Of a DNA stretch of 64,000 bases, positions 4,460-64,000 are shown piece by piece. Origin of the DNA: Bacteroidota bacterium (GTDB lineage: Bacteria; Bacteroidota; Bacteroidia; Sphingobacteriales; Sphingobacteriaceae); contig JAZKCT010000055.1 of the NCBI GenBank assembly GCA_040387995.1, positions 5,372-69,371 of the forward strand, given 5' to 3'. The notes below the pieces were generated by a model. It had not been told where the DNA came from, searched no databases, and was given only the letters and a program-made list of their open reading frames with translations. How positions within the stretch are numbered: position 1 is the first letter of the stretch; each line of letters starts with the position of its first letter. Made by a program: the position numbers and the translations under genes.

Positions 4460-7252
4460 TTAATAGTTGTTTTTGTAGAATTCCATGTATTTGTTTAACA
4501 GGTCTTTATTGGTCAGTTTTTCAAAGTTCTCTTTACTGACGATAAAGCTGCTGTAGACATTAACAGGAACCTTCATGATCTGTTTTAATTGAGCATCTAT
4601 CCCACTGGCATAGGATTTGGCATCTTCAAAATTACTAAAGTTCCCTACATAAATGAGCTGATCATTGTCAAATTCTTTTATTTGATGCTTTAGGTTGCTT
4701 CCTGAATAATTGCCACGATTGAACTGGCCAATGCCAAAACGGGATGAGCTTAACGTTAACGAGGCATCCGCTACGTCAATAACGTAATAATACACAGTAG
4801 ATTTAGCATTGCTAAACGGTCCCTCTGTCTTGATTTTTTCCGGAGCAACAATTGGAGCTGCAACCGGAGGATTAGGTAGCACTGGAGCTGCTAAGGGGTC
4901 TGTTTTTTTAACGATGTCAGAAACGACTGGCACGGGTGAGCCGACAGATTCCTGCTGTTGCGTAACCACCGTAGAAGTTGCTTTAGTGGCTGGTAGGAAG
5001 GGCGGTTCATTCGGGTCAAAATCCGTGATGGCTATTGGCCTCTTTTTTAATTCATCCAGATGTGCCATGATGTAAGACAAATGTGCCTTAACAAGAGGCG
5101 TAATCAATTTGTCTTCAGGGAACCGGAGGATGATGGAATCGAGGGACTGAATCAGCGCGTTTACATCAGCCGTACGTCCGATAGAAATTGCATTAAGATA
5201 GGCAAACTGCGGAGATAAAAGTCCCTGTGCTGTTTCAGGGCGACCTTTAATTTCTGCTATAACATTGCCGAATTCTTTGCTTGCATACTTGTCAAAAATG
5301 TCATTGTATTTTTTATTCAGCGCTGCCTCAAATTCAGATTGTTTTGCAGAGAAATTAGGATCTGGAATTGTTTTGGCGTAGATGGAGCCAGGAAATTCTG
5401 TGAGTACCTTGCTTTTAAATTCGTTTGATTTGGCCGGGTTTTTCTCTTTATTGATGAGAAATAAACTATAATAGACCGCAGGAAGGTGATTGTTGGACGG
5501 AAATCTTTTTACTAAGGTAGTATAAGTTTCTTCAGCTTCCTCCGGATCCTGAAGCTCCTGCAAATAAAAGCTGGCGATTTCGTAGTAAGCATCGATAATT
5601 TTTTGATTCGATTGGGTGAGTAAATCAGGAGTAACCGGCAGTGCGTCCGTATATTGCTTGACGAGAGTTGCCTTGTCTTTTACAAGAGGAAGTGCCTCGC
5701 CAGTTGCCGCTGGATCAGCAGCAATGCTGTTTGCGAGGTCCTGTGTAGTTTCCTGAGCGGAAGATCTCATGCTCTGACGCCAGTTGTTTTCCAATTTTCG
5801 GCCACCCCATTTTTTCTTAAAATCATTGAAACCGATACTGACTGCAGTTGGGTTACTGAAATAGAAAGAGTTTTGCGATTGATTTTTATTGCCTTGACTC
5901 GCACCAAAAGCCGCAGGCATGTTGGCGGAGGTATTGTTTTCATTTGGCTGTTGGGATGCTTGTACAGGCGGATTGGCCAATGCCTCTATCAACGGAGCCC
6001 GGCTCGCTTCTGGCTGCCTTGCAATATATTGTAGGGTATCTTCGGTAGCAATGATCTGGAGACGATTGGTCAGATAGGCCAGATTTTGCGTTTTTTTAGC
6101 AATCAAATCATATCCGGGGTAGCTTTTAGGCAGCGTAGCTATGGTACTGTCGTAATAGGATTTTGCCTCGGGATAATTTTTGAACTGTTTGAAATTCAGA
6201 TCTGCAATACGGAGGTAGGATAATCCTTTTTGATACAAATTGGCGGTACTCCGCTGGATAGAAAGCTGGTAGAATTTTTTTGCCTCATCGTATTCCTCCT
6301 TCGACGCATGTGCTTCGGCTACCTGGAAATAGATCTGATCATTATAATCTAAATTCTTATCGTCTTTTAACAAACTAAGCAATTCATCTTCGTTCGTTTT
6401 TCCTGTTTTGCCCTGCAAACCGCGCAGTTTGATCTGATTGAGGTTTGCATTGAAATACATTTCAAATGGCGCATTACTGCGCTCGACCTTTCTGTAGTTT
6501 TTTGATGCTTCGCCATAATTTTTCTGGCTTTCAAACAACTGACCAAGAATGTATGTCCATCTAATCTTATTTTGGTTCTCAGCATTTGATTTTACGGCAT
6601 CCTTAAGATAGGAAATGGCAGCTTCATTGTTTTTGAGATAGATGCACATCTGTGCCAGTGTAGCGAGCGGTTCTGATCGGTTTCTTTTGGCTTTTACAAT
6701 TGGCATAATGGCTTCCATCGTATCTAAAACCTGGTTGGCCTCTGCAATGCGTTTAAGTTGCATCAGGCTTCTTGCTTTCCAGTTGAGCGCTTCCAGATAG
6801 CTGCCTGTATTGTTTTTATACGTTTTAATGGTGTAGTCGAAATATTCTGCGGCGTTGAAATAGCTGCCGTTGTAAAAGTTTGCCTTGCCCAGCAAGAGAT
6901 AAGCATCATCAAGATAATTGCTATAGTTCTTTTCGAGGATAATGTTCTGGGCTTTTTTTATAATGTCGTCCATCGGCTTGAGATTTAAAGAGGCTCCAGG
7001 AAACGAACTGTCGTTTTCCGGTCCGAGATAAACCGGTAGAATTTGGTCATAATTATCTACGTAGGTTTCAGTAAGCTCTTGCTGGTGAGCCGAGAGTGTT
7101 GCTTTTGCATTGTACAAATAATTGTACCTGGCGGTAAGGTTTTGCAATGCTCTTGAAGTTGCGGTATCTCTTTGTGAACTGCATGAACAGATCATACATA
7201 GACCGAAGCTAAATAGTAGTATCTTTAAATTGCTTGTGGCGTGCTGTTTCAA
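4460..7252 (-). CDS. TPR-repeat lipoprotein, SprE/PorW-like (type IX secretion/gliding)
   Basis: Lipobox-like CSCS, NLTARYNYLYNA and YLDDAYLLLGKANFY motifs, many TPRs, WG.RKLENNWR motif; 1 bp from the PBP1A gene. Confidence 0.65.
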   Translation of the reverse strand: MKQHATSNLKILLFSFGLCMICSCSSQRDTATSRALQNLTARYNYLYNAKATLSAHQQELTETYVDNYDQILPVYLGPENDSSFPGASLNLKPMDDIIKKAQNIILEKNYSNYLDDAYLLLGKANFYNGSYFNAAEYFDYTIKTYKNNTGSYLEALNWKARSLMQLKRIAEANQVLDTMEAIMPIVKAKRNRSEPLATLAQMCIYLKNNEAAISYLKDAVKSNAENQNKIRWTYILGQLFESQKNYGEASKNYRKVERSNAPFEMYFNANLNQIKLRGLQGKTGKTNEDELLSLLKDDKNLDYNDQIYFQVAEAHASKEEYDEAKKFYQLSIQRSTANLYQKGLSYLRIADLNFKQFKNYPEAKSYYDSTIATLPKSYPGYDLIAKKTQNLAYLTNRLQIIATEDTLQYIARQPEASRAPLIEALANPPVQASQQPNENNTSANMPAAFGASQGNKNQSQNSFYFSNPTAVSIGFNDFKKKWGGRKLENNWRQSMRSSAQETTQDLANSIAADPAATGEALPLVKDKATLVKQYTDALPVTPDLLTQSNQKIIDAYYEIASFYLQELQDPEEAEETYTTLVKRFPSNNHLPAVYYSLFLINKEKNPAKSNEFKSKVLTEFPGSIYAKTIPDPNFSAKQSEFEAALNKKYNDIFDKYASKEFGNVIAEIKGRPETAQGLLSPQFAYLNAISIGRTADVNALIQSLDSIILRFPEDKLITPLVKAHLSYIMAHLDELKKRPIAITDFDPNEPPFLPATKATSTVVTQQQESVGSPVPVVSDIVKKTDPLAAPVLPNPPVAAPIVAPEKIKTEGPFSNAKSTVYYYVIDVADASLTLSSSRFGIGQFNRGNYSGSNLKHQIKEFDNDQLIYVGNFSNFEDAKSYASGIDAQLKQIMKVPVNVYSSFIVSKENFEKLTNKDLLNKYMEFYKNNY

Positions 7253-7360
7253 AAATAGAGATTAAGTTAATGCTGCTTATTAATATTAAGATATATACAA
7301 AAGTATTTTATTCGGCAATAAAATCTTAAGAAAAGATGTTTTATTTAGTGTTATTGAGAT

Positions 7361-7585
7361 ATGAACGAAACAGAGGATAAAAAACGGGCGGTTAATAATT
7401 TTGCCAGGTATTCTGCGATTAGTTTCCAGATGCTGGCAACCATTGGCGTGTTTGCCTTTGCAGGATATAAGATCGATCAGCAAAGAAACGCGAAGACCCC
7501 GCTTTGCACTGCAATTTTAAGCTTAATTGGTGTGGTCATATCACTGTATCAGGTTGTAAAGCAATTGAATAAAAACAGCCGCTGA
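7361..7585 (+). CDS. AtpZ/AtpI-family small membrane protein
   Basis: Two TM helices, GYKIDQ motif, first gene of the atp cluster. Confidence 0.75.
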   Translation: MNETEDKKRAVNNFARYSAISFQMLATIGVFAFAGYKIDQQRNAKTPLCTAILSLIGVVISLYQVVKQLNKNSR

Positions 7586-7610
7586 TTATTTAAAGCTGGG
7601 GGTAAATTCT

Positions 7611-7618
7611 TACTTTTG
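7611..7618 (+). promoter_or_regulatory. Bacteroidota primary sigma -7 promoter element
   Basis: TACTTTTG matches TAnnTTTG, 15 bp upstream of the next ORF. Confidence 0.55.
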
Positions 7619-7633
7619 TAAAAAATATAAATT

Positions 7634-8020
7634 TTGAGCATTCAAAGGTTCACCCTTTTTTATTTATTGTATTGCGTCTTCATTGCGCTGTTGGCTTATG
7701 CAATCCCATTAATTTTTCCCGGAACTGCGATTTTACTCGGAAAATTTTGGGTGGTCTATGGTTTTCTTGCCGGGGTCACATTTATAGCTTATGTTCTGGC
7801 TTATTTGGGCATTAAACGTAACCCTGAAGCCGGTGTGATGGCCATTATGGGTTCGATTGCATTGAAAATGATTTTTTCTATGGCTTTTGTGTTGATTTAC
7901 AGCTTGAAAGCTCATGAAAAGGGGATCGTGTTTGTACTGAACTTTTTTTCTTTATATTTATTGTTCAGCTTCTTTGAAATATACGCTTTGTTGTGTAACT
8001 TGCGCCACCAAAATAAATAG
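7634..8020 (+). CDS. Four-TM membrane protein of the atp operon (ATP synthase I-like accessory)
   Basis: Hydrophobic 128 aa ORF with TTG start, directly before atpB. Confidence 0.6.
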   Translation: MSIQRFTLFYLLYCVFIALLAYAIPLIFPGTAILLGKFWVVYGFLAGVTFIAYVLAYLGIKRNPEAGVMAIMGSIALKMIFSMAFVLIYSLKAHEKGIVFVLNFFSLYLLFSFFEIYALLCNLRHQNK

Positions 8021-8037
8021 TAAAAATCTGCGACTAA

Positions 8038-9198
8038 ATGGATTGTAGCCACGTTTTTGAGTTTAAAGTTAATAGGTTAATTGTTGTTTTTACGCTTTTT
8101 TTAGCGTTTTTTTCTGCTGCACCTGCTGCTTTTGCTCAGGAAGACACAGTTAATTCAGTAGCGCAAGCGCATCTGGAGGATACTGCGCATGTTGCTGAAG
8201 GCGGACATGCTGAGCAAAGTAAAAAGTTTGATATTGGTAAGTTCGCTTTGCACCATATTGCTGATTCGCACAGCTGGCATGTGATTGGTGAGACTTATAT
8301 TAGTCTACCGGTGATTTTGTATACTTCTAATGGCTTTGTCACTTTTAGTTCTGGTGATTTTAATCACGATGACGATGCGAAAGTTGTTGTAGAAAGAAAA
8401 GGCCTTCGTTTTGTGAAGCTGCATGAGAAAATTTATTATGCTTCGTCTGCTGCAAATGAACATGGTTCTTTTGTTGATCTTGATGAGAAGCACCATGCTT
8501 CTAATTCACGTCCTCTGGATCTTTCCATTACGAAGAACGTTTGTACGCTTTTTCTGTCGATCATTATCATACTTGCTGTGTTTCTTAATGTGGCTAAGGG
8601 CTATAGGGTTCGTAAGGGTAAATCTCCTAAAGGTTTGCAGTCCTGGATGGAGCCGATCATTCTTTTTGTCCGTGATGATATTGCCAAGCCTAACTTGGGT
8701 CATAAGTATGAGCGTTTCATGCCTTATTTACTGACCGTGTTTTTCTTTATCTGGTTTAACAATATGCTTGGTTTGGTTCCTTTTCTTCCGGGAGGAGCGA
8801 ATTTGACCGGGAATATTGCAGTAACTTTAGTTTTGGCAGTTGCAACTTTCTGTCTGACAGTATTCAATGGGAACAAATACTACTGGAAGCATATTTTCAT
8901 GCCGGATGTGCCCTGGTGGATGTATATCGTGATGGTTCCGGTTGAGCTTTTCGGTATTTTTACCAAGCCGATCGCATTGATGATTCGTTTGTTTGCAAAC
9001 ATCACTGCCGGCCACATTTTGGTGCTGTCGCTGATCTGTCTGGTTTTCGTTTTCAATAGTTTGTGGATTGCTCCTGTTTCTGTTGCGTTTGCTGTGTTCA
9101 TCGGTGCAATTGAATTGCTGGTTGCTTTTATCCAGGCCTTTATATTTACGATTTTGTCTGCCTTGTTTATCGGTATGGCAATTGAGGAACACCATTAA
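8038..9198 (+). CDS. atpB: F0F1 ATP synthase subunit a (long Bacteroidota form)
   Basis: ALMIRLFANITAGH with the conserved Arg, ELLVAFIQAFIF; N-terminal soluble extension. Confidence 0.96.
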   Translation: MDCSHVFEFKVNRLIVVFTLFLAFFSAAPAAFAQEDTVNSVAQAHLEDTAHVAEGGHAEQSKKFDIGKFALHHIADSHSWHVIGETYISLPVILYTSNGFVTFSSGDFNHDDDAKVVVERKGLRFVKLHEKIYYASSAANEHGSFVDLDEKHHASNSRPLDLSITKNVCTLFLSIIIILAVFLNVAKGYRVRKGKSPKGLQSWMEPIILFVRDDIAKPNLGHKYERFMPYLLTVFFFIWFNNMLGLVPFLPGGANLTGNIAVTLVLAVATFCLTVFNGNKYYWKHIFMPDVPWWMYIVMVPVELFGIFTKPIALMIRLFANITAGHILVLSLICLVFVFNSLWIAPVSVAFAVFIGAIELLVAFIQAFIFTILSALFIGMAIEEHH

Positions 9199-9224
9199 TA
9201 AGAATTATTTTTTAACAACAATAA

Positions 9225-9449
<225 letters not shown>

Positions 9450-9457
9450 AACTAATT

Positions 9458-9488
9458 TGTGCCAGGCATACGCCTGGCACATTTTTTT
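9458..9488 (+). terminator. Intra-operon hairpin with U-tract after atpE
   Basis: TGTGCCAGGC-ATAC-GCCTGGCACA followed by TTTTTTT. Confidence 0.7.
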
Positions 9489-9527
9489 GTTAAAGAAGAA
9501 GAAGATTATTTTATAATACATACGTAG

Positions 9528-10022
9528 ATGGAATTATTAGTACCTGAATTTGGATTGGTTATCTTGCAGACGATAGCTTTCTTATTGCTGATGTTTTTGT
9601 TGGCAAAATTCGCATGGAAGCCTGTTTTGGCGGCTATTAAAGAACGCGAGCAATCAATTGACGAAGCATTGAACAAAGCTGAACTGGCTAAACAGGAAAT
9701 GACGCGTTTGACTTCCCAGAACGAGGAATTAATGAAAGAGGCGCGTGCTGAACGTGACAGCATATTAAAAGAGGCAAAAAACCTTAAAGATAGTATTCTT
9801 CATGAGGCGAAAACTCAAGCCCATACCGAAGGTGCTAAATTAATTGAAAAAGCAAGGATTGAAATTGAAAATCAGAAGAAGGCTGCTTTAGCGGAACTTA
9901 AAACTCAGGTTTCGAGTTTGTCACTGGAGATTGCTGAACGTGTATTGCGCAGCCAACTGGATGATCAGGCCAAACAGCAGGATCTAGTAGCTAACCTTTT
10001 AAAAGACGTTGAACTGAACTAG
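9528..10022 (+). CDS. atpF: F0F1 ATP synthase subunit b
   Basis: Single N-terminal TM, KFAWKPVL..IKERE, long coiled coil. Confidence 0.95.
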   Translation: MELLVPEFGLVILQTIAFLLLMFLLAKFAWKPVLAAIKEREQSIDEALNKAELAKQEMTRLTSQNEELMKEARAERDSILKEAKNLKDSILHEAKTQAHTEGAKLIEKARIEIENQKKAALAELKTQVSSLSLEIAERVLRSQLDDQAKQQDLVANLLKDVELN

Positions 10023-10053
10023 TGTTTGGGTTTAATCAGATATAACGAAGATA

Positions 10054-57325: not shown

Positions 57326-57505
57326 TTAGTTTAAGGGGTTAAATGGTGCTGTTGTTAAAATCTCTGTTTCTATTACGGTAATATTCTTCGTGCCTGAAAA
57401 CTGGTACTTGGTCTCCTGCTCAAATTCCTGTACGGTTTCCGACAAATTGGAAAGTTTGCTATCTACCGTTACCCTAATGGTCAGGTATAAATGGTGCTGT
57501 TTCAT
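57326..57505 (-). CDS. 59-aa ORF missing from the ORF track; paralog of 57474-57698
   Basis: Hand translation MKQHHLYLTIRVTVDSKLSNLSETVQEFEQETKYQFSGTKNITVIETEILTTAPFNPLN; stop lies 5 bp before the DUF932 ATG. Confidence 0.7.
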   Translation of the reverse strand: MKQHHLYLTIRVTVDSKLSNLSETVQEFEQETKYQFSGTKNITVIETEILTTAPFNPLN

Positions 57506-57698
57506 AAGAATTCAATTTATTAATGTGCGGATTGCGAACCCTTGATAACAGGATTTCAGTTTCCATAATATTGACATTGGCCGTATCGGTCATGGCTAAT
57601 TTGGAATGGCTTTCAACCTCGCTGACAATAGCAGATAGGCTTTCATGATCGGCGTGAACGGTCACGCGGACCATAATAAATAGTGTTTCGTACTTCAT
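57474..57698 (-). CDS. Small hypothetical protein, tandem paralog
   Basis: MKYETLFIMVRVTV...N.N+METEIL aligns with the 59-aa ORF. Confidence 0.7.
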   Translation of the reverse strand: MKYETLFIMVRVTVHADHESLSAIVSEVESHSKLAMTDTANVNIMETEILLSRVRNPHINKLNSYETAPFIPDH

Positions 57699-58983: not shown

Positions 58984-59628
58984 TCAATTGCTTTTAAACA
59001 AAAGCGGATCATCATCACCTGGTTTTCTCACGATGTAAACCGTCTTAAATTCCGGTGGGGGACAGGAATACAGCCTGCGTGCCAGTTCCACTGCTGCCAG
59101 TACGGAACTGGCTTTAGCTACACCCATGCCTTTGAAACTACACAACGAAGAATAGCTACTGCTTTTCAGCATATGGATCTTTCCGCCCATGCCTTCCAGT
59201 ATGCGGCCGGCCAGCTCAATAGCCGATTCGCCAGGCGAACCCGAGCCCAGCAAAATAGCCAGCAGTTCCGCATTATTTATTTTATTTGCACCATGCGCAA
59301 ACAGCTTTTCCCTTGGACGTGTATCCTCAGGCATCGCTTTAATCCCTTTTGAAACCCTCGATTCTTCTGCCACCTCTCTAAGCGTCTGGTATCCGCGCCC
59401 CTGGTAAGCAGCCGACTGGAATAGCGAAGCGAAAGCGCTGATAAAATCCTCCAGGTGATTTTCAAAAACGACGAACGACCACCTTTTATAGCTGCCGTCG
59501 GGCTGCTGTTCACTGCGGGTTAACTGGATATAGCGGCTGTCATTCTCCGCGCGTTTAAAATCTAAAAAGTAATGTCTTTTGTCAGTGGCCGAAAAGGATT
59601 CCGAGGCCAGTATTTCTTTCTTTTTCAT
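58984..59628 (-). CDS. PUR-alpha-like (DUF3276) domain fused to the RadC N-terminal HhH region, lacking the JAB domain
   Basis: RHYFLDFKRAEND.RYIQLT.S PUR-like N-half; RPREKL...G...+NNAELLAILLGSG...SAIELA..IL and GMGVAKA..+LAAVELARR. Confidence 0.8.
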   Translation of the reverse strand: MKKKEILASESFSATDKRHYFLDFKRAENDSRYIQLTRSEQQPDGSYKRWSFVVFENHLEDFISAFASLFQSAAYQGRGYQTLREVAEESRVSKGIKAMPEDTRPREKLFAHGANKINNAELLAILLGSGSPGESAIELAGRILEGMGGKIHMLKSSSYSSLCSFKGMGVAKASSVLAAVELARRLYSCPPPEFKTVYIVRKPGDDDPLLFKSN

Positions 59629-60277: not shown

Positions 60278-60661
60278 TTAAACACGTTCAGCAACAGCGA
60301 ACGCTAAAGTTAAAATTTCAGAATGTGTGATAGTAACATGCCATTTGTTGATACCGAATTTGTCACTGAGGGTTTTGACTTTTCCTGAAAGTTTTACCTC
60401 CGGCTGGCCGTTTGGAGAGCGAATGATATCAATGTCTTTAAGGGAAATGTCATCCTGCATTCCCGTTCCAAGGCACTTTAATATCGCCTCTTTTGCAGCG
60501 AAACGCCCCGCAATGAAATTGTCTTTAGAAGCGTGTGCATGAAATAGCGCTAATTCACTTTCTGACAGGATCCTGCTAGGAAAATTACCCTGTGTGTCCC
60601 AGGCAAGTAATTTGCTGTTTTGGTCGTGTTGAACAATATCACTTCCGATTCCAATGATCAT
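60278..60661 (-). CDS. acpS: AcpS-type 4'-phosphopantetheinyl transferase (holo-ACP synthase)
   Basis: MIIGIGSDIV, AGRFAAKEAILKCLGTG, NGQPEVKL, VTITHS motifs. Confidence 0.88.
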   Translation of the reverse strand: MIIGIGSDIVQHDQNSKLLAWDTQGNFPSRILSESELALFHAHASKDNFIAGRFAAKEAILKCLGTGMQDDISLKDIDIIRSPNGQPEVKLSGKVKTLSDKFGINKWHVTITHSEILTLAFAVAERV

Positions 60662-60672
60662 GGGACAGGCAA

Positions 60673-61263
60673 TTAATTTATTGCCAGGTAATCGATTTCT
60701 TTTGTTAAAAGATTAAAGTTGACACGACCGCCTCCATTATTTATTAACAACCGGAACATATCATAAGCTTTTAAAATAGCCTTTTCCCATTCTTTGGAAG
60801 TACGTGCGTTGACTTCAAAATTCTCAGTCATTTCCTTAACGATTCGTAGCGTCGTACGTGATACTTTAGAAGCGCCCTCAAAATACTTTTTACGCTTTGC
60901 CTCATTAAAAATGACCATAGATAGCGCTTCTTCTGTTATAGTTGCCCTTGCTCCATCTTCAATTTCATCTAGTAAGACATCGCTTTTGCGCTTACGCTTC
61001 ATCATGGCACGGGTACAAGGTGACCAGCCAAGCAGGGTAGCAAAGGTGTAGTGAAAAATATCGTGATAACGGTAGAAATCATTGCTGTAAGCATTATCAT
61101 TGATGACATCCCCAATCTGCTCATCGTCATTGAGTACAACACGCACTTCTTCCCTGATCCCATTTCCTACCTCATAAAAAGAGACAGAAAAGGACCGCGG
61201 GATTTGTTCCTCAGGCTTACAGCCTGCATCAAAATAACTATTTTGCTTTTTTGATCGTGTCAT
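60673..61263 (-). CDS. Stand-alone MazG C-terminal (MazG_C) domain protein
   Basis: EQIPRSF, IGD.INDNAY..D.YRYHDIFH...A.LLGWSP..RAMMKRKRKS...DEIEDGARA.ITEEALS; no N-terminal MazG helical domain. Confidence 0.75.
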   Translation of the reverse strand: MTRSKKQNSYFDAGCKPEEQIPRSFSVSFYEVGNGIREEVRVVLNDDEQIGDVINDNAYSNDFYRYHDIFHYTFATLLGWSPCTRAMMKRKRKSDVLLDEIEDGARATITEEALSMVIFNEAKRKKYFEGASKVSRTTLRIVKEMTENFEVNARTSKEWEKAILKAYDMFRLLINNGGGRVNFNLLTKEIDYLAIN

Positions 61264-62092
61264 TTTTTATTTCGTTAGCTAATATACTATCTATTTTTTG
61301 AACCAGAACCTTATCAGTTAATGTTTTACGTATTTCGGTGATAACTTCCTCTGTTGATTCTTTAGATTTTCTGCCATCCGCGAATCCCCGGTCATAGGCT
61401 ACCCAATCCCAACCTAACTTTAAAGCTATCGCAATAAAAAGGCCAATGATAATTTTATATAACCAGTCGTTGCGATCTTTTTTCTCGTCTGATTTTACAA
61501 TCTTTTCAGAAAGGGATTGTTCAACGGCTACAATTTTATCTAACAGAGCTTTTGGCGAAGTCAGTTCTCCCCGTTTTAAAAACTCAATATATTTTGGCGG
61601 AATATGATCGAGTTTTTTAAAATGATCGTTGTTGTCATTGTAAGCTTCATCTTCGCTTAGTTCATGCTTCATCTCCGCAAACCAAATCGGGAAATAAGGT
61701 TCGCCAAAATTAAGTACAATTGTAGAAGGCCCTGCATTGTATACAGAAAATAGCAAATGGTCATTGAAACCAGGGTCAACATGAAAACCAGATACGTTAA
61801 TGAGACCCTTTAGCTTTTCTCCGGCTTTGATAGAAATAAAGGCAATTTTGTCTTTTGGAATACTGACCTTTTCTTTTGTTAGCAACAAGGCAAACTGTCC
61901 TGGATTGATATCAATCTGCCGGTCGTCTTTATCCAATGTTTCTACCTTTCCTGTCTTAGAGTCAGTGAGGTAAACTTCTTTGCCAAGGGATAATTCATAC
62001 GCGCCGTTTTTTACCCTTCGGGCATCAAATGGATCTATCACGTTTGATGTTGTTTGTAAGACCAGTAATTCTTTTACACCTAAAAATGCCAT
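61238..62092 (-). CDS. dCTP deaminase/dUTPase-fold protein with substituted deaminase residues and a C-terminal TM helix
   Basis: AYELSLG, INPGQFALLLT.E.V, GLINVSGFHVDPGF, VYNAG; hydrophobic WLYKIIIGLFIAIALKLGWDWV near the C-terminus. Confidence 0.8.
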   Translation of the reverse strand: MAFLGVKELLVLQTTSNVIDPFDARRVKNGAYELSLGKEVYLTDSKTGKVETLDKDDRQIDINPGQFALLLTKEKVSIPKDKIAFISIKAGEKLKGLINVSGFHVDPGFNDHLLFSVYNAGPSTIVLNFGEPYFPIWFAEMKHELSEDEAYNDNNDHFKKLDHIPPKYIEFLKRGELTSPKALLDKIVAVEQSLSEKIVKSDEKKDRNDWLYKIIIGLFIAIALKLGWDWVAYDRGFADGRKSKESTEEVITEIRKTLTDKVLVQKIDSILANEIKNDTIKKAK

Positions 62093-62133: not shown

Positions 62134-63222
62134 TCAGTCCAATATTTCTATCAACCGCGGAGCCTGCTGTATCCTGTGGTTAATTCCCCATTTTGGCGGG
62201 AACCAGTAATCAATTTTTGAGGCGTTGCTCCGAAATTTCTGCTTAATGTTTACCCGTTCACTTGCTCCTTTGATGTCAGGATGTTTCACTCTGGCATATT
62301 TGTCCACTTCACAAAATAAATTCTGACAATCTATCAACTGCAGCTTTCTAGTCCAAAGATCTTTAAACTCTAAACCCAGACGTTCGAACTCCCGTTCCTG
62401 GCTATCGGTCATCAGTTTAATAATCTCCACATTATTCAGTCCCCCAGTATTGGAAAAACATTTACTGATTCCTCCTTTTGCGCCAGGACCTGGCACAACA
62501 AAAGATGATTCAGAAAAATCAGTTAGGGTAGAATAATTGATGTCAATTACCAACTGATAAGCCAGGAAGTCTCCAAGTCCAGGAAACCTTTTGATCAATT
62601 CAAACGCATGTTGCATATTCTTGGCAGTAACCAGATGCTCATGCGTATCCTCTGCAATCATGAACTCGATTAACTTAAGGTGGTTGGAGTGCTTTCTGGT
62701 ATAACCAAAATAAGAGCCTCCTGACGGCATGATGTAAGCAGCCGAATAGATTCGCTCGCCGGCCAACATGGCTATCGTTAAGATCTTATCATAAGCTTCA
62801 AAATTATAGTCTTCGAAAGTTATCGTTCCAAATTCTGCAAGAAGTAACTCCCAGGTATCTATTTTGTTGAATAGCTTAAATACTAAAATGCGGAAAAGTA
62901 TTTCCTTAGGTGTATTTGGAAACTGATCATTGTAGATCACGTTTTTAATGAGGTATTGACTGACCCTATCCGCTGCCCGATACGCATTTGTAAACTTGTA
63001 TTTATTTAAAATATCGTCATCTGACCAGGGTGCACTCAGACCGTTAAACCTGTTAAAAAATGCTTCCTGGCGCAGTGCAGCAAACTTCCAATAAGAGATG
63101 TATACGTCCGTAACAATAGCAGGAGCAAGAGAAACATGAATATTTATCGTATGCCCGGTAGTGTTTGCTGCCGGGGCTGTAGTTGATTTACTTTCTTTGT
63201 TTTGTTTTGTCATGACCTGCAA
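62134..63222 (-). CDS. 5-hydroxymethyl-dU DNA kinase-like protein (aGPT-Pplase clade 1 / helical domain family)
   Basis: YWKFAALRQ..F, W.DD.IL..YKFTNAYRAADRVSQY, FKLFNK..TW, YSAAY, FPGLGDFLAYQ..ID.NY, GPGA.GG, LIDCQNLFCEVDKYAR. Confidence 0.8.
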   Translation of the reverse strand: MQVMTKQNKESKSTTAPAANTTGHTINIHVSLAPAIVTDVYISYWKFAALRQEAFFNRFNGLSAPWSDDDILNKYKFTNAYRAADRVSQYLIKNVIYNDQFPNTPKEILFRILVFKLFNKIDTWELLLAEFGTITFEDYNFEAYDKILTIAMLAGERIYSAAYIMPSGGSYFGYTRKHSNHLKLIEFMIAEDTHEHLVTAKNMQHAFELIKRFPGLGDFLAYQLVIDINYSTLTDFSESSFVVPGPGAKGGISKCFSNTGGLNNVEIIKLMTDSQEREFERLGLEFKDLWTRKLQLIDCQNLFCEVDKYARVKHPDIKGASERVNIKQKFRSNASKIDYWFPPKWGINHRIQQAPRLIEILD

Positions 63223-63231
63223 AGATAACCG

Positions 63232-63978
63232 CTATAGAATAGAACTTAAATTAATTCTGTCCAATAAATCCTTGGCAGATGTCTTTCCCAGATTGTCCAG
63301 TTGTTCCACCCCGATAAAGCAATTCAACCGCTCGAATTCAAGACCAGTTTCCTGGGCGATAAATTTTCCTAGATTGATCAGTCCCAGCCAATTTCCGTAG
63401 GCCCGGCGGTAAAAAAACTGAATCGCATAAAAACTATTCAGCACCAGGCCACCTGTTTCTGATTTGTAAAATGTAACATGCTGAAGGCAGGGGAATCTCT
63501 GGTATGGGCCGTTGGTATGGTCCTGTTCAGGATCAAAGATTGATGCCTGGAGCTTGGATCTCCGTTTATTAGTGGTGCTTAAAATAGAGGTAATGATCAT
63601 CTCCAGCTGGTTGATCGGCTGTCCAGCATTTTGATAAGCGATCATTCTTTGGAAATAAGTACCCTTGTGATTACTGGAATCTATGCGCCTGATACGTTGA
63701 TAATTTCGCATATATTGGTCGTACAGTTCATGGCGATCCCATCCGCAAAACTGATAAAGGGATTGCGGGAAAATTGTTTCTGAAACAGTTTGTATCGATG
63801 GTAAATCGTGACTGGCCAGATCAGCATCCAACAATTCCCGAACATCTGAAGATTCCACAAAGTCAGTAAGGGTCAATAATAGTGGACTAATTTCTTTTCC
63901 AGAGTTACTCACCAGCGTATTCAGTACTTCAGTCCAGGCTTCTGATAAATTGGTGTTTTTAATAAATAATGGTTCCAT
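63232..63978 (-). CDS. Divergent thymidylate synthase-fold protein (dUMP hydroxymethylase-like)
   Basis: TVSETIFP, GTYFQRM, ASIFDP, FPCL catalytic-Cys motif, AYGNW equivalent of the TS PFN motif. Confidence 0.75.
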   Translation of the reverse strand: MEPLFIKNTNLSEAWTEVLNTLVSNSGKEISPLLLTLTDFVESSDVRELLDADLASHDLPSIQTVSETIFPQSLYQFCGWDRHELYDQYMRNYQRIRRIDSSNHKGTYFQRMIAYQNAGQPINQLEMIITSILSTTNKRRSKLQASIFDPEQDHTNGPYQRFPCLQHVTFYKSETGGLVLNSFYAIQFFYRRAYGNWLGLINLGKFIAQETGLEFERLNCFIGVEQLDNLGKTSAKDLLDRINLSSIL

Positions 63979-64000
63979 AAATTGCTAATCTAGATCGTTT

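Follow-up and report, generated by a model that had tools for sequence, protein, structure and literature searches.

Introduction

Cassettes that combine a thymidylate synthase (TS) gene with an HMUDK_hel gene have only just been shown to act against phage in Escherichia coli, in the form of DS-4. This system ('NTTI'), reported with DefensePredictor, was validated as anti-phage in E. coli MG1655 (DeWeirdt, Mahoney & Laub, Science 2026; PMC13092281). It consists of thymidylate synthase, adenylate kinase, HMUDK_hel, TIR and Nmad2 proteins, and its mechanism was left unexplained; systems containing aGPT-Pplase, MazG, MazG-C ('a predicted nucleotide kinase') or dUTPase are presented in the same work as defensive by prediction and untested (PMC13092281). 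Here, we analyze an eight-gene operon, referred to as the cassette, that lies at the end of a 64,000-nucleotide stretch of DNA (the window) from a Bacteroidota bacterium of the Sphingobacteriaceae (assembly GCA_040387995.1). The window corresponds to positions 5372-69371 of the 98.7-kb contig JAZKCT010000055.1 (C55). The last gene of the cassette encodes an AcpS-type 4'-phosphopantetheinyl transferase (PPTase), and the first appears to encode the carrier protein (CP) that this enzyme would modify.

Judged from its genes, the locus is unusual in that an AcpS would be dedicated to activating a carrier-protein family without a name, within a widespread, mobile and probably inducible nucleotide-modifying cassette. 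The terms 'ACPS', 'PF01648', 'PP-binding', 'carrier protein' and 'phosphopantethein' are absent from the text and the 12 supplementary files of the DS-4 study (PMC13092281), and the papers on phage thymidine hypermodification (PMC5889632, PMC8989533) mention neither a carrier protein nor a PPTase. The literature on the cassette, on the Pfam names of its genes and on PPTases or acyl carrier proteins (ACPs) in anti-phage defense yielded nothing that links a carrier protein and a PPTase to such systems, which the gene-neighborhood figures of Iyer et al. 2013 and Burroughs et al. 2015 might already do.

The last gene of the operon encodes an intact AcpS

The open reading frame (ORF) at 60278..60661 (minus strand) of the window encodes a protein of 127 aa with the sequence features expected of an intact, ordinary AcpS-type (group I) PPTase. 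Its single domain scores 63.5 bits against PF01648 ACPS (cut-off 25) and 97.1 bits against TIGR00516 acpS (cut-off 59.8). The motifs G6-S7-D8 and G52-RFAAKEA-59 are both present, and the ORF begins 11 bp after that of MazG_C (60673-61263). The initial annotation, made from the window alone, had described the gene in these terms, with its GxD and RFAAKEA motifs, its spacing from MazG_C and its nucleotide-gene neighbors upstream (MazG_C, DCD-like, HMUDK_hel and TS-like), and the description is confirmed.

Sequence conservation points to an active enzyme. Residues D8, E58 and K62, which by the numbering of B. subtilis AcpS we take to be Mg2+ and phosphate (metal, CoA) ligands, are unchanged in 65 of 65 cassette AcpS proteins and in 8 of 8 other AcpS sequences. 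Their invariance throughout the cassette group indicates that selection maintains the enzyme as a catalyst. A further residue, W107, is specific to the cassette clade (60 of 65 sequences). In Mucilaginibacter sp. SP1R1 (locus L023, 9849-10287), the cassette AcpS is broken into two ORF fragments that overlap each other (111 and 42 bits); a pseudogene with a frameshift, or an error of sequencing, is the probable explanation.

The first gene of the operon encodes a predicted carrier protein

The initial annotation had found no carrier protein in view of this AcpS. That statement holds inside the 64-kb window but is an artifact of the window's edge: the operon extends past base 64000 by three further same-strand genes, separated by gaps of at most 6 nt or overlapping, and it begins with a CP gene. 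Coordinates in this continuation (locus L005) become window coordinates when 58000 is added. The complete gene order is CP, XRE helix-turn-helix (HTH), M78 peptidase, TS-like, HMUDK_hel, DCD-TM, MazG_C and AcpS, with intergenic gaps of at most 41 nt or overlaps throughout. CP and AcpS are thus the first and last genes of the operon. The CP gene (window-equivalent 65166-65459, L005 7166-7459, minus strand) starts the operon 1.2 kb past the window end and shares 20 nt with the HTH gene. Among the options raised by the initial annotation, an ACP-like ORF encoded upstream, beyond base 64000, is therefore the one borne out as far as the existence of the carrier is concerned; the delivery of an acyl or aminoacyl group to the modified base, which the annotation had coupled to it, would be one possible task of this protein.

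On profile and fold evidence, the 97-aa product of this gene is assigned to the carrier proteins (ACP/peptidyl carrier protein (PCP), PP-binding superfamily), with Ser43 as the predicted acceptor. Ser43 is the only invariant residue of the family (76 of 76 homologs from many phyla), and Pro36 is found in 75 of the 76. The motif around the serine is of the (G/D)xS type and reads GISS in most Bacteroidota and a canonical-looking GFDS elsewhere. When a profile of 18 homologs (alignment A2) was compared to the PDB, it matched the aminoacyl carrier protein 4h2s_C (E 1.4e-3) with Ser43 placed over the acceptor serine. A broader profile gave 17 sub-threshold PDB matches in the same register, 14 of which are named acyl carrier proteins.

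Structure prediction agrees with this assignment. The AlphaFold2 model (pLDDT 87, pTM 0.78) has three long helices, the second of which begins exactly at Ser43. Among the matches listed by a Foldseek search of the PDB with this model, 50 in number, essentially all are carrier domains or whole chains of the ACP, PCP or aminoacyl-CP kind, with probabilities up to 1.00, TM-scores up to 0.76 and E-values of 0.05 or above; such modest E-values are expected for so short a domain. The family is unnamed and large (1056 clusters at E <= 1e-3), and the UniRef name of one homolog (P0122) is 'Carrier domain-containing'.

A six-frame search of the whole genome with PF00550 gave no match on the JAZKCT010000055.1 contig. 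The same search retrieved no canonical acpP, its sole match (20.4 bits) being at C22:260075, adjacent to a cluster of PPTase and ketosynthase genes. The assembly lacks ~6% of the genome, which may be where the housekeeping acpP lies; alternatively, the first-look filter of the search may have removed it.

AcpS and the carrier protein are linked across phyla

The genomic context of AcpS homologs ties the gene to the cassette. The contigs of seven homologs, with identities between 48% and 80% and including Pedobacter, Larkinella, Mucilaginibacter and Chryseobacterium, all place the gene in the cassette. AcpS is the last gene of the eight-gene cassette in six of the seven contigs, and the seventh contig starts inside the cassette. 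The flanking genes are unrelated from one contig to the next and include RecO, a NACHT protein, integrases, Hachiman HamA with a DEAD helicase, and SIR2/Fic genes.

A wider survey was performed by scanning one genome per species with the HMUDK alignment. At least 395 loci were found, in Bacteroidota, Alpha-, Beta- and Gammaproteobacteria, Cyanobacteriota, Planctomycetota, Acidobacteriota, Gemmatimonadota and Chloroflexota. The eight components were then mapped by iterated hidden Markov models (HMMs) on the best 80 of these loci (at least 54% identity), 67 of which have enough flanking sequence for linkage counts. Across the 80 loci, the order CP-HTH-M78-TS-HMUDK forms the conserved core, after which MazG_C and AcpS usually come; every locus with CP also has HTH, M78, TS-like and HMUDK_hel, and no other partner is shared by all of them. 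The strand and position of AcpS vary, yet the gene stays with the cassette: its orientation is convergent in Alphaproteobacteria and Cyanobacteria, and in one locus (L072) it immediately precedes CP. The cassette is best described as a unit that moves from phylum to phylum.

By HMM counts, CP and AcpS occur together in 50 of the 67 loci, CP alone in 9, AcpS alone in 2 and neither in 6. The two apparent exceptions (L074 and L085) have, at the CP position, a divergent ORF with an LDS motif that aligns in register with the CP profile, as a weak match (E 0.12). If these ORFs are counted as CP, the figures become 52, 9, 0 and 6, so that AcpS without a carrier-like gene is never seen among the 67 complete loci (Fisher p 5e-5, a value inflated by relatedness), nor in the 80 mapped loci overall. 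AcpS is also retained in or adjoining the cassette in 52 of these loci, where its absence from homologous operons would have pointed to a chance neighbor. In L074 and L085, both from Planctomycetota, M78 and TS-like are in addition separated by the gene of a cysteine peptidase of the papain family (PF00112; 6325-7062 and 6501-7160, respectively), and HMUDK is fused to MazG_C.

The co-occurrence of AcpS and CP bears on two other proposals of the initial annotation, that the PPTase acts on an acceptor other than a carrier protein, such as the 5-hydroxymethyl group of 5-hydroxymethyluracil (hmU) in DNA or nucleotides, or that it drains coenzyme A (CoA) as a toxic effector. Both draw on chemical analogy alone, the PPTase reaction being a transfer to a hydroxyl. 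The same operon encodes a cognate CP with an invariant acceptor serine, without which AcpS does not occur, and the catalytic residues of AcpS show no cassette-specific change. A stoichiometric acceptor could also not deplete CoA without a phosphopantetheine (Ppant) hydrolase. Neither proposal gains support from these data; the cognate CP makes the hydroxymethyl acceptor unnecessary, and we regard this family of explanations as highly improbable.

An even sample was obtained by scanning 400 other Bacteroidota genomes for HMUDK_hel, which has a patchy distribution and was found in 5 of 401 genomes (4 of those sampled and the source genome). The four sampled genomes comprise one full cassette with AcpS, one CP-bearing locus without AcpS and two loci lacking both CP and AcpS. 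Within the source genus, the cassette is present in 2 of 5 genomes and absent from 3 of the 4 others sampled. The cassette AcpS domains of Chryseobacterium binzhouense (L027) and Empedobacter brevis (L028) are placed as identical in the tree, and the two loci also agree in cassette map and in HMM scores, which points to a very recent transfer between genera.

The cassette AcpS as an extra copy

Comparison with the other PPTases of the same hosts shows the AcpS gene of the cassette to be an additional copy, specific to the cassette. Elsewhere in the source genome, three more genes encode PPTases: a pair of divergent, AcpS-like genes located within ketosynthase clusters, and one gene of the Sfp/AcpT type that adjoins lipB and the housekeeping dcd. 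One or more further PPTases were found in all 10 genomes checked whose cassette has an AcpS. Four of the five proteobacterial cassette genomes examined carry a separate housekeeping-type AcpS, and the fifth, Xanthomonas, has a second PPTase of unclear type. In the phylogenetic tree, the 65 cassette AcpS proteins fall on one side of a branch and six housekeeping AcpS, five of them from genomes with a cassette AcpS, on the other. When plasmids were searched with AcpS, all matches were acpS genes of the housekeeping type, none above 41% identity, and the context of the best 'plasmid' match is Bacillus-like and chromosomal (alr, mazF, rsb).

These data make it highly improbable that the gene is an ordinary housekeeping holo-ACP synthase that lies here by chance and serves only the ACP of fatty-acid synthesis. 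The protein does pass the TIGR00516 equivalog cut-off, and it is the sole canonical AcpS-type match in the source genome, whose other PPTases are divergent or Sfp-type. Against this, the gene sits on a conjugative element that is absent from three of the four congeneric genomes sampled. Every near homolog is located in the same cassette, a conserved linkage that already contradicts chance. Separate housekeeping-type AcpS proteins exist in the proteobacterial cassette genomes examined, and an Sfp/AcpT-type PPTase is also present in Bacteroidota cassette genomes (beside lipB in the source genome). We therefore consider it quite likely that this AcpS is the PPTase dedicated to the cassette CP and not to the housekeeping ACP.

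Charge complementarity between helix 1 of AcpS and helix II of CP was considered as a sign of a private pair. The difference in the AcpS region is small (-0.4 versus +0.6) and CP helix II is approximately neutral on average, and the candidate was rejected as unconvincing.

Other genes of the cassette

The genes between CP and AcpS combine a putative regulatory pair with four nucleotide-related families. The gene that follows CP encodes an XRE HTH protein of 111 aa (window-equivalent 64850-65185, L005 6850-7185, minus strand; PF01381, 1.1e-13). The next gene encodes an M78 (ImmA/IrrE/CapP-like) zinc peptidase of 287 aa (window-equivalent 63985-64848, L005 5985-6848, minus strand; PF06114, 1.2e-11). 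It is cut by the window edge, and only its 3' end (63985..64000) lies within the window. Its HELGH motif (HExxH) is invariant in the alignment, and its profile (A7) matches CapP (PDB 7t5t, E 1.5e-5) and also IrrE (3dte). The CapH/CapP and ImmR/ImmA pairs each act as a repressor/protease switch through which CBASS (the cyclic-oligonucleotide-based anti-phage signaling system) or ICEBs1 is derepressed upon DNA damage. The HTH/M78 pair would work as a switch of this type, and would make the cassette inducible.

The TS-like gene (63232..63978, minus strand) encodes a divergent thymidylate-synthase-fold protein of 248 aa, with a match to TIGR03283 (7e-14) that is below the cut-off. Its P-C-L-Q motif is invariant (alignment A5), and the sole match of its PDB profile search, which is non-significant, is CMP 5-hydroxymethylase. 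The most conserved gene of the cassette encodes an HMUDK_hel protein of 362 aa (62134..63222, minus strand; PF18723, 354 bits) of the 5-hydroxymethyldeoxyuridine (5-hmdU) DNA kinase/aGPT-Pplase helical family, which shares 27-32% identity with phage homologs. The DCD-TM gene (61238..62092, minus strand) encodes a dCTP-deaminase/dUTPase-fold protein of 284 aa with a hydrophobic C-terminal segment (PF22769 DCD, 45.5 bits; TIGR02274, 60.5 bits, under the cut-off). The DCD gene varies in position and was undetected in many loci of other phyla. MazG_C is a stand-alone protein of 196 aa in this operon (60673..61263, minus strand; PF18722, 220 bits), and in other phyla is often fused to a MazG domain (as in L036) or to HMUDK_hel. 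PDB profile searches with MazG_C (A6) and HMUDK (A3) gave nothing meaningful. In a scan of the operon for sigma-70 promoters and terminators, hits were no more frequent than in shuffled sequence.

Genomic setting and type of system

The cassette lies in a conjugative element. Beyond the operon, a divergent AAA_21/AAA_15 ATPase gene is followed by Bacteroidota conjugative-transposon genes (TraM, TraG and others), and RadC-like and DUF932 genes are found downstream of AcpS. The GC content of the cassette (~37-42%) is lower than that of the tra genes (45-51%). These surroundings, together with the lower GC content, identify the cassette as cargo of an integrative and conjugative element (ICE).

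Other genes of this element were also inspected. The divergent ATPase (AbiEii/OLD-like P-loop, 623 aa) is encoded at L005 7642-9513 (plus strand, window-equivalent 65642-67513), across a 182-nt intergenic region from the CP gene, and may be another defense-type cargo gene of the ICE. The RadC-like protein (58984-59628, minus strand) has only the UPF0758 N-terminal helix-hairpin-helix part and a weak DUF3276 match; a JAB/MPN domain was undetected. Two small, paralog-like ORFs of 59 and 74 aa (57326-57505 and 57474-57698, minus strand; 'LTIRVTVDSKLSNLSETVQEFEQETKYQF...ITVIETEIL' and 'IMVRVTVHADHESLSAIVSEVESHSKLAM...VNIMETEIL') lie within the ICE, with the DUF932 gene on one side and a Lys/Glu-rich ORF of 194 aa on the other.

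We regard the cassette as most likely a conflict (anti-phage) system that can be induced and that modifies pyrimidine nucleotides or DNA. The flanking genes of its homologs are of the defense type (Hachiman HamA, NACHT, SIR2 and Fic genes) along with integrases and ICE genes. The carriage by a conjugative transposon, with TraG, TraM and other tra genes, also fits a different purpose, namely that mobile elements use the cassette not for immunity but to replace or decorate thymine in their own DNA, for example to escape restriction after conjugation, with CP and AcpS delivering the group. The enzyme families involved are indeed those of phage thymidine hypermodification (PMC5889632). Several other genomes, however, have defense-type and not conjugation genes around the cassette, and the predicted repressor/protease switch argues for emergency induction. 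DS-4, the only tested relative, protects against phage, and the cassette lacks an aGPT-Pplase-type transferase paralog, a pyridoxal phosphate (PLP) enzyme and a radical-SAM enzyme. A self-modification module is therefore unlikely, and a defensive, inducible role is favored.

Proposed function of AcpS and the carrier protein

In the proposed scheme, AcpS would transfer 4'-phosphopantetheine, or possibly acyl-phosphopantetheine, from CoA or acyl-CoA to Ser43 of CP. This modification of Ser43, which we infer from the pairing of the two genes, would give the holo-CP that the cassette needs in order to work.

Several observations weigh against a dedicated AcpS-CP pair at the heart of a defense system. 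The Pfam model PF00550 misses CP, with no match at E <= 1 for the CP of this operon and 15 diverse members; this failure of the PP-binding model to detect the family is also why CP is annotated as hypothetical. The nine CP-bearing loci without a nearby AcpS indicate that a host PPTase can apparently serve, and hence that a dedicated AcpS is not obligatory. The HMUDK tree gives just four independent contrasts of CP and AcpS, too few for significance, with AcpS never going in the opposite direction. The single origin of the cassette AcpS has an SH-aLRT support of only 73%, which is weak, with no conflicting signal. PADLOC v2 returned no match for the seven genes scanned (AcpS to TS-like, a Zn-ribbon ORF and the RadC-like gene). 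Finally, the cassette contains no enzyme to load CP, that is, no adenylating enzyme, acyltransferase or ketosynthase.

The missing loading enzyme leaves three routes: the bare thiol may be the working group, AcpS may load acyl-Ppant from acyl-CoA, or a host enzyme may load CP. Direct transfer of acyl-Ppant from acyl-CoA has been described in vitro for E. coli AcpS (PMC5613970), and such loading by the cassette AcpS would explain why no loading enzyme is encoded.

Holo-CP could then be a chemical partner of TS-like or HMUDK_hel, providing a thiol or an acyl group at pyrimidine C5. In one version, the Ppant thiol would capture an electrophilic C5-methylene or 5-phosphomethyl intermediate produced by TS-like or HMUDK_hel. 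In the other, AcpS would place acyl-phosphopantetheine from acyl-CoA on Ser43, and the acyl group would then be passed to the base. That the Ppant arm is itself a direct reactant in the chemistry of pyrimidines or DNA bases within an immune system is a possibility that we advance only tentatively.

The position of the CP gene suggests a different downstream role. CP constantly accompanies HTH and M78, and the CP and HTH genes overlap. Loci without CP also lack HTH, M78 and AcpS, yet can retain TS, HMUDK and MazG_C (L060). In one locus (L093, 5375-6352), CP and HTH share one open frame, a possible natural fusion. Holo-CP and AcpS could thus belong to a regulatory front end (CP-HTH-M78), in which the carrier acts as a sensor, co-repressor or protease modulator that times the cleavage of HTH, a reading that the absence of a loading enzyme also favors. 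This proposal rivals only the downstream role of the carrier, and leaves AcpS as its PPTase. The L093 fusion, however, comes from a single contig of a metagenome-assembled genome and could be an assembly error, and AcpS lies at the enzyme end of the operon, away from the regulators. Moreover, we know of no precedent for a carrier protein in an XRE/M78 switch. A regulatory role of this kind is likewise advanced only tentatively. Whichever role holo-CP may have, its formation by AcpS is the step that we propose for the cassette as a whole.

Implications

The CP-bearing form of the cassette appears to be far more widespread than the DS-4 type, as the genomes of at least 395 species have HMUDK homologs. 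For such cassettes, no role of carrier-protein chemistry has been described. If the Ppant arm does take part in base chemistry, one of the oldest cofactors in biology would gain a new use, and thiol capture or acyl transfer would give nucleotide or DNA modification its first example of carrier-protein chemistry. The pair also offers an experimental handle, as whatever the system builds or senses should sit covalently on the Ppant arm of Ser43. For annotation, 'holo-ACP synthase' genes of the cassette clade should not be taken as fatty-acid housekeeping genes.

Comparison with known systems

The cassette AcpS resembles the group I enzymes of E. coli and B. subtilis in its length (~125 aa), its one PF01648 domain, its passing of the TIGR00516 cut-off and its D8, E58 and K62 residues. 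It differs in being an additional copy, carried on mobile cassettes and forming its own group apart from the housekeeping AcpS of the hosts. Its presumed substrate also differs, being a near-neutral carrier protein outside fatty-acid synthesis that the Pfam PP-binding model misses.

The TS and HMUDK_hel genes of the cassette are akin to those of DS-4, which also combines a TS-fold gene with an HMUDK_hel gene. Where DS-4 has a kinase of the adenylate-kinase type, the cassette has MazG_C, a predicted nucleotide kinase that may replace it. The TIR, Nmad2 and adenylate-kinase domains of DS-4 are absent from the cassette, whereas CP, AcpS, XRE/M78 and DCD-TM are absent from DS-4. The lack of the kinase, TIR and Nmad2 makes the cassette a relative of DS-4 and not a member. 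One locus of Bacteroidota (L134, G180:C1:3845300-3862300, 4506-10048) has the order CP-HTH-M78-TS-like-DCD-Tmk-like kinase-HMUDK-second, more canonical TS, with no MazG_C and no AcpS within 8 kb. With its kinase and second TS, this locus bridges CP cassettes and DS-4-type systems.

Phage thymidine hypermodification (ViI, M6, PhiW-14 and SP10; PMC5889632, PMC8989533) shares with the cassette a TS-like pyrimidine hydroxymethylase homolog and the 5-HMUDK/aGPT-Pplase family, as well as the dCTP-deaminase/dUTPase fold and MazG-like domains. In contrast to these phage pathways, the cassette is cellular, mobile and placed under a predicted repressor/protease switch, and it has a single HMUDK_hel gene and no PLP or radical-SAM gene.

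With the CapH/CapP switch of CBASS and the ImmR/ImmA switch of ICEBs1, the cassette has in common an XRE HTH gene followed by an M78 HExxH peptidase gene, with profile matches to CapP and IrrE. Its putative switch departs from them in that the CP gene is translationally coupled upstream of HTH.

Finally, pairs of an in-cluster PPTase and a stand-alone carrier in secondary metabolism resemble the cassette in that a small carrier protein and a PPTase devoted to it are encoded together. The glycine:[carrier protein] ligase system of Bradyrhizobium (PDB 4h2s) provides, with its aminoacyl carrier protein, the best PDB match of the CP profile. Unlike both, the cassette has no ligase, adenylation, ketosynthase or condensation domain and no acyltransferase, and its CP is partnered instead with nucleotide enzymes and a predicted repressor/protease switch.

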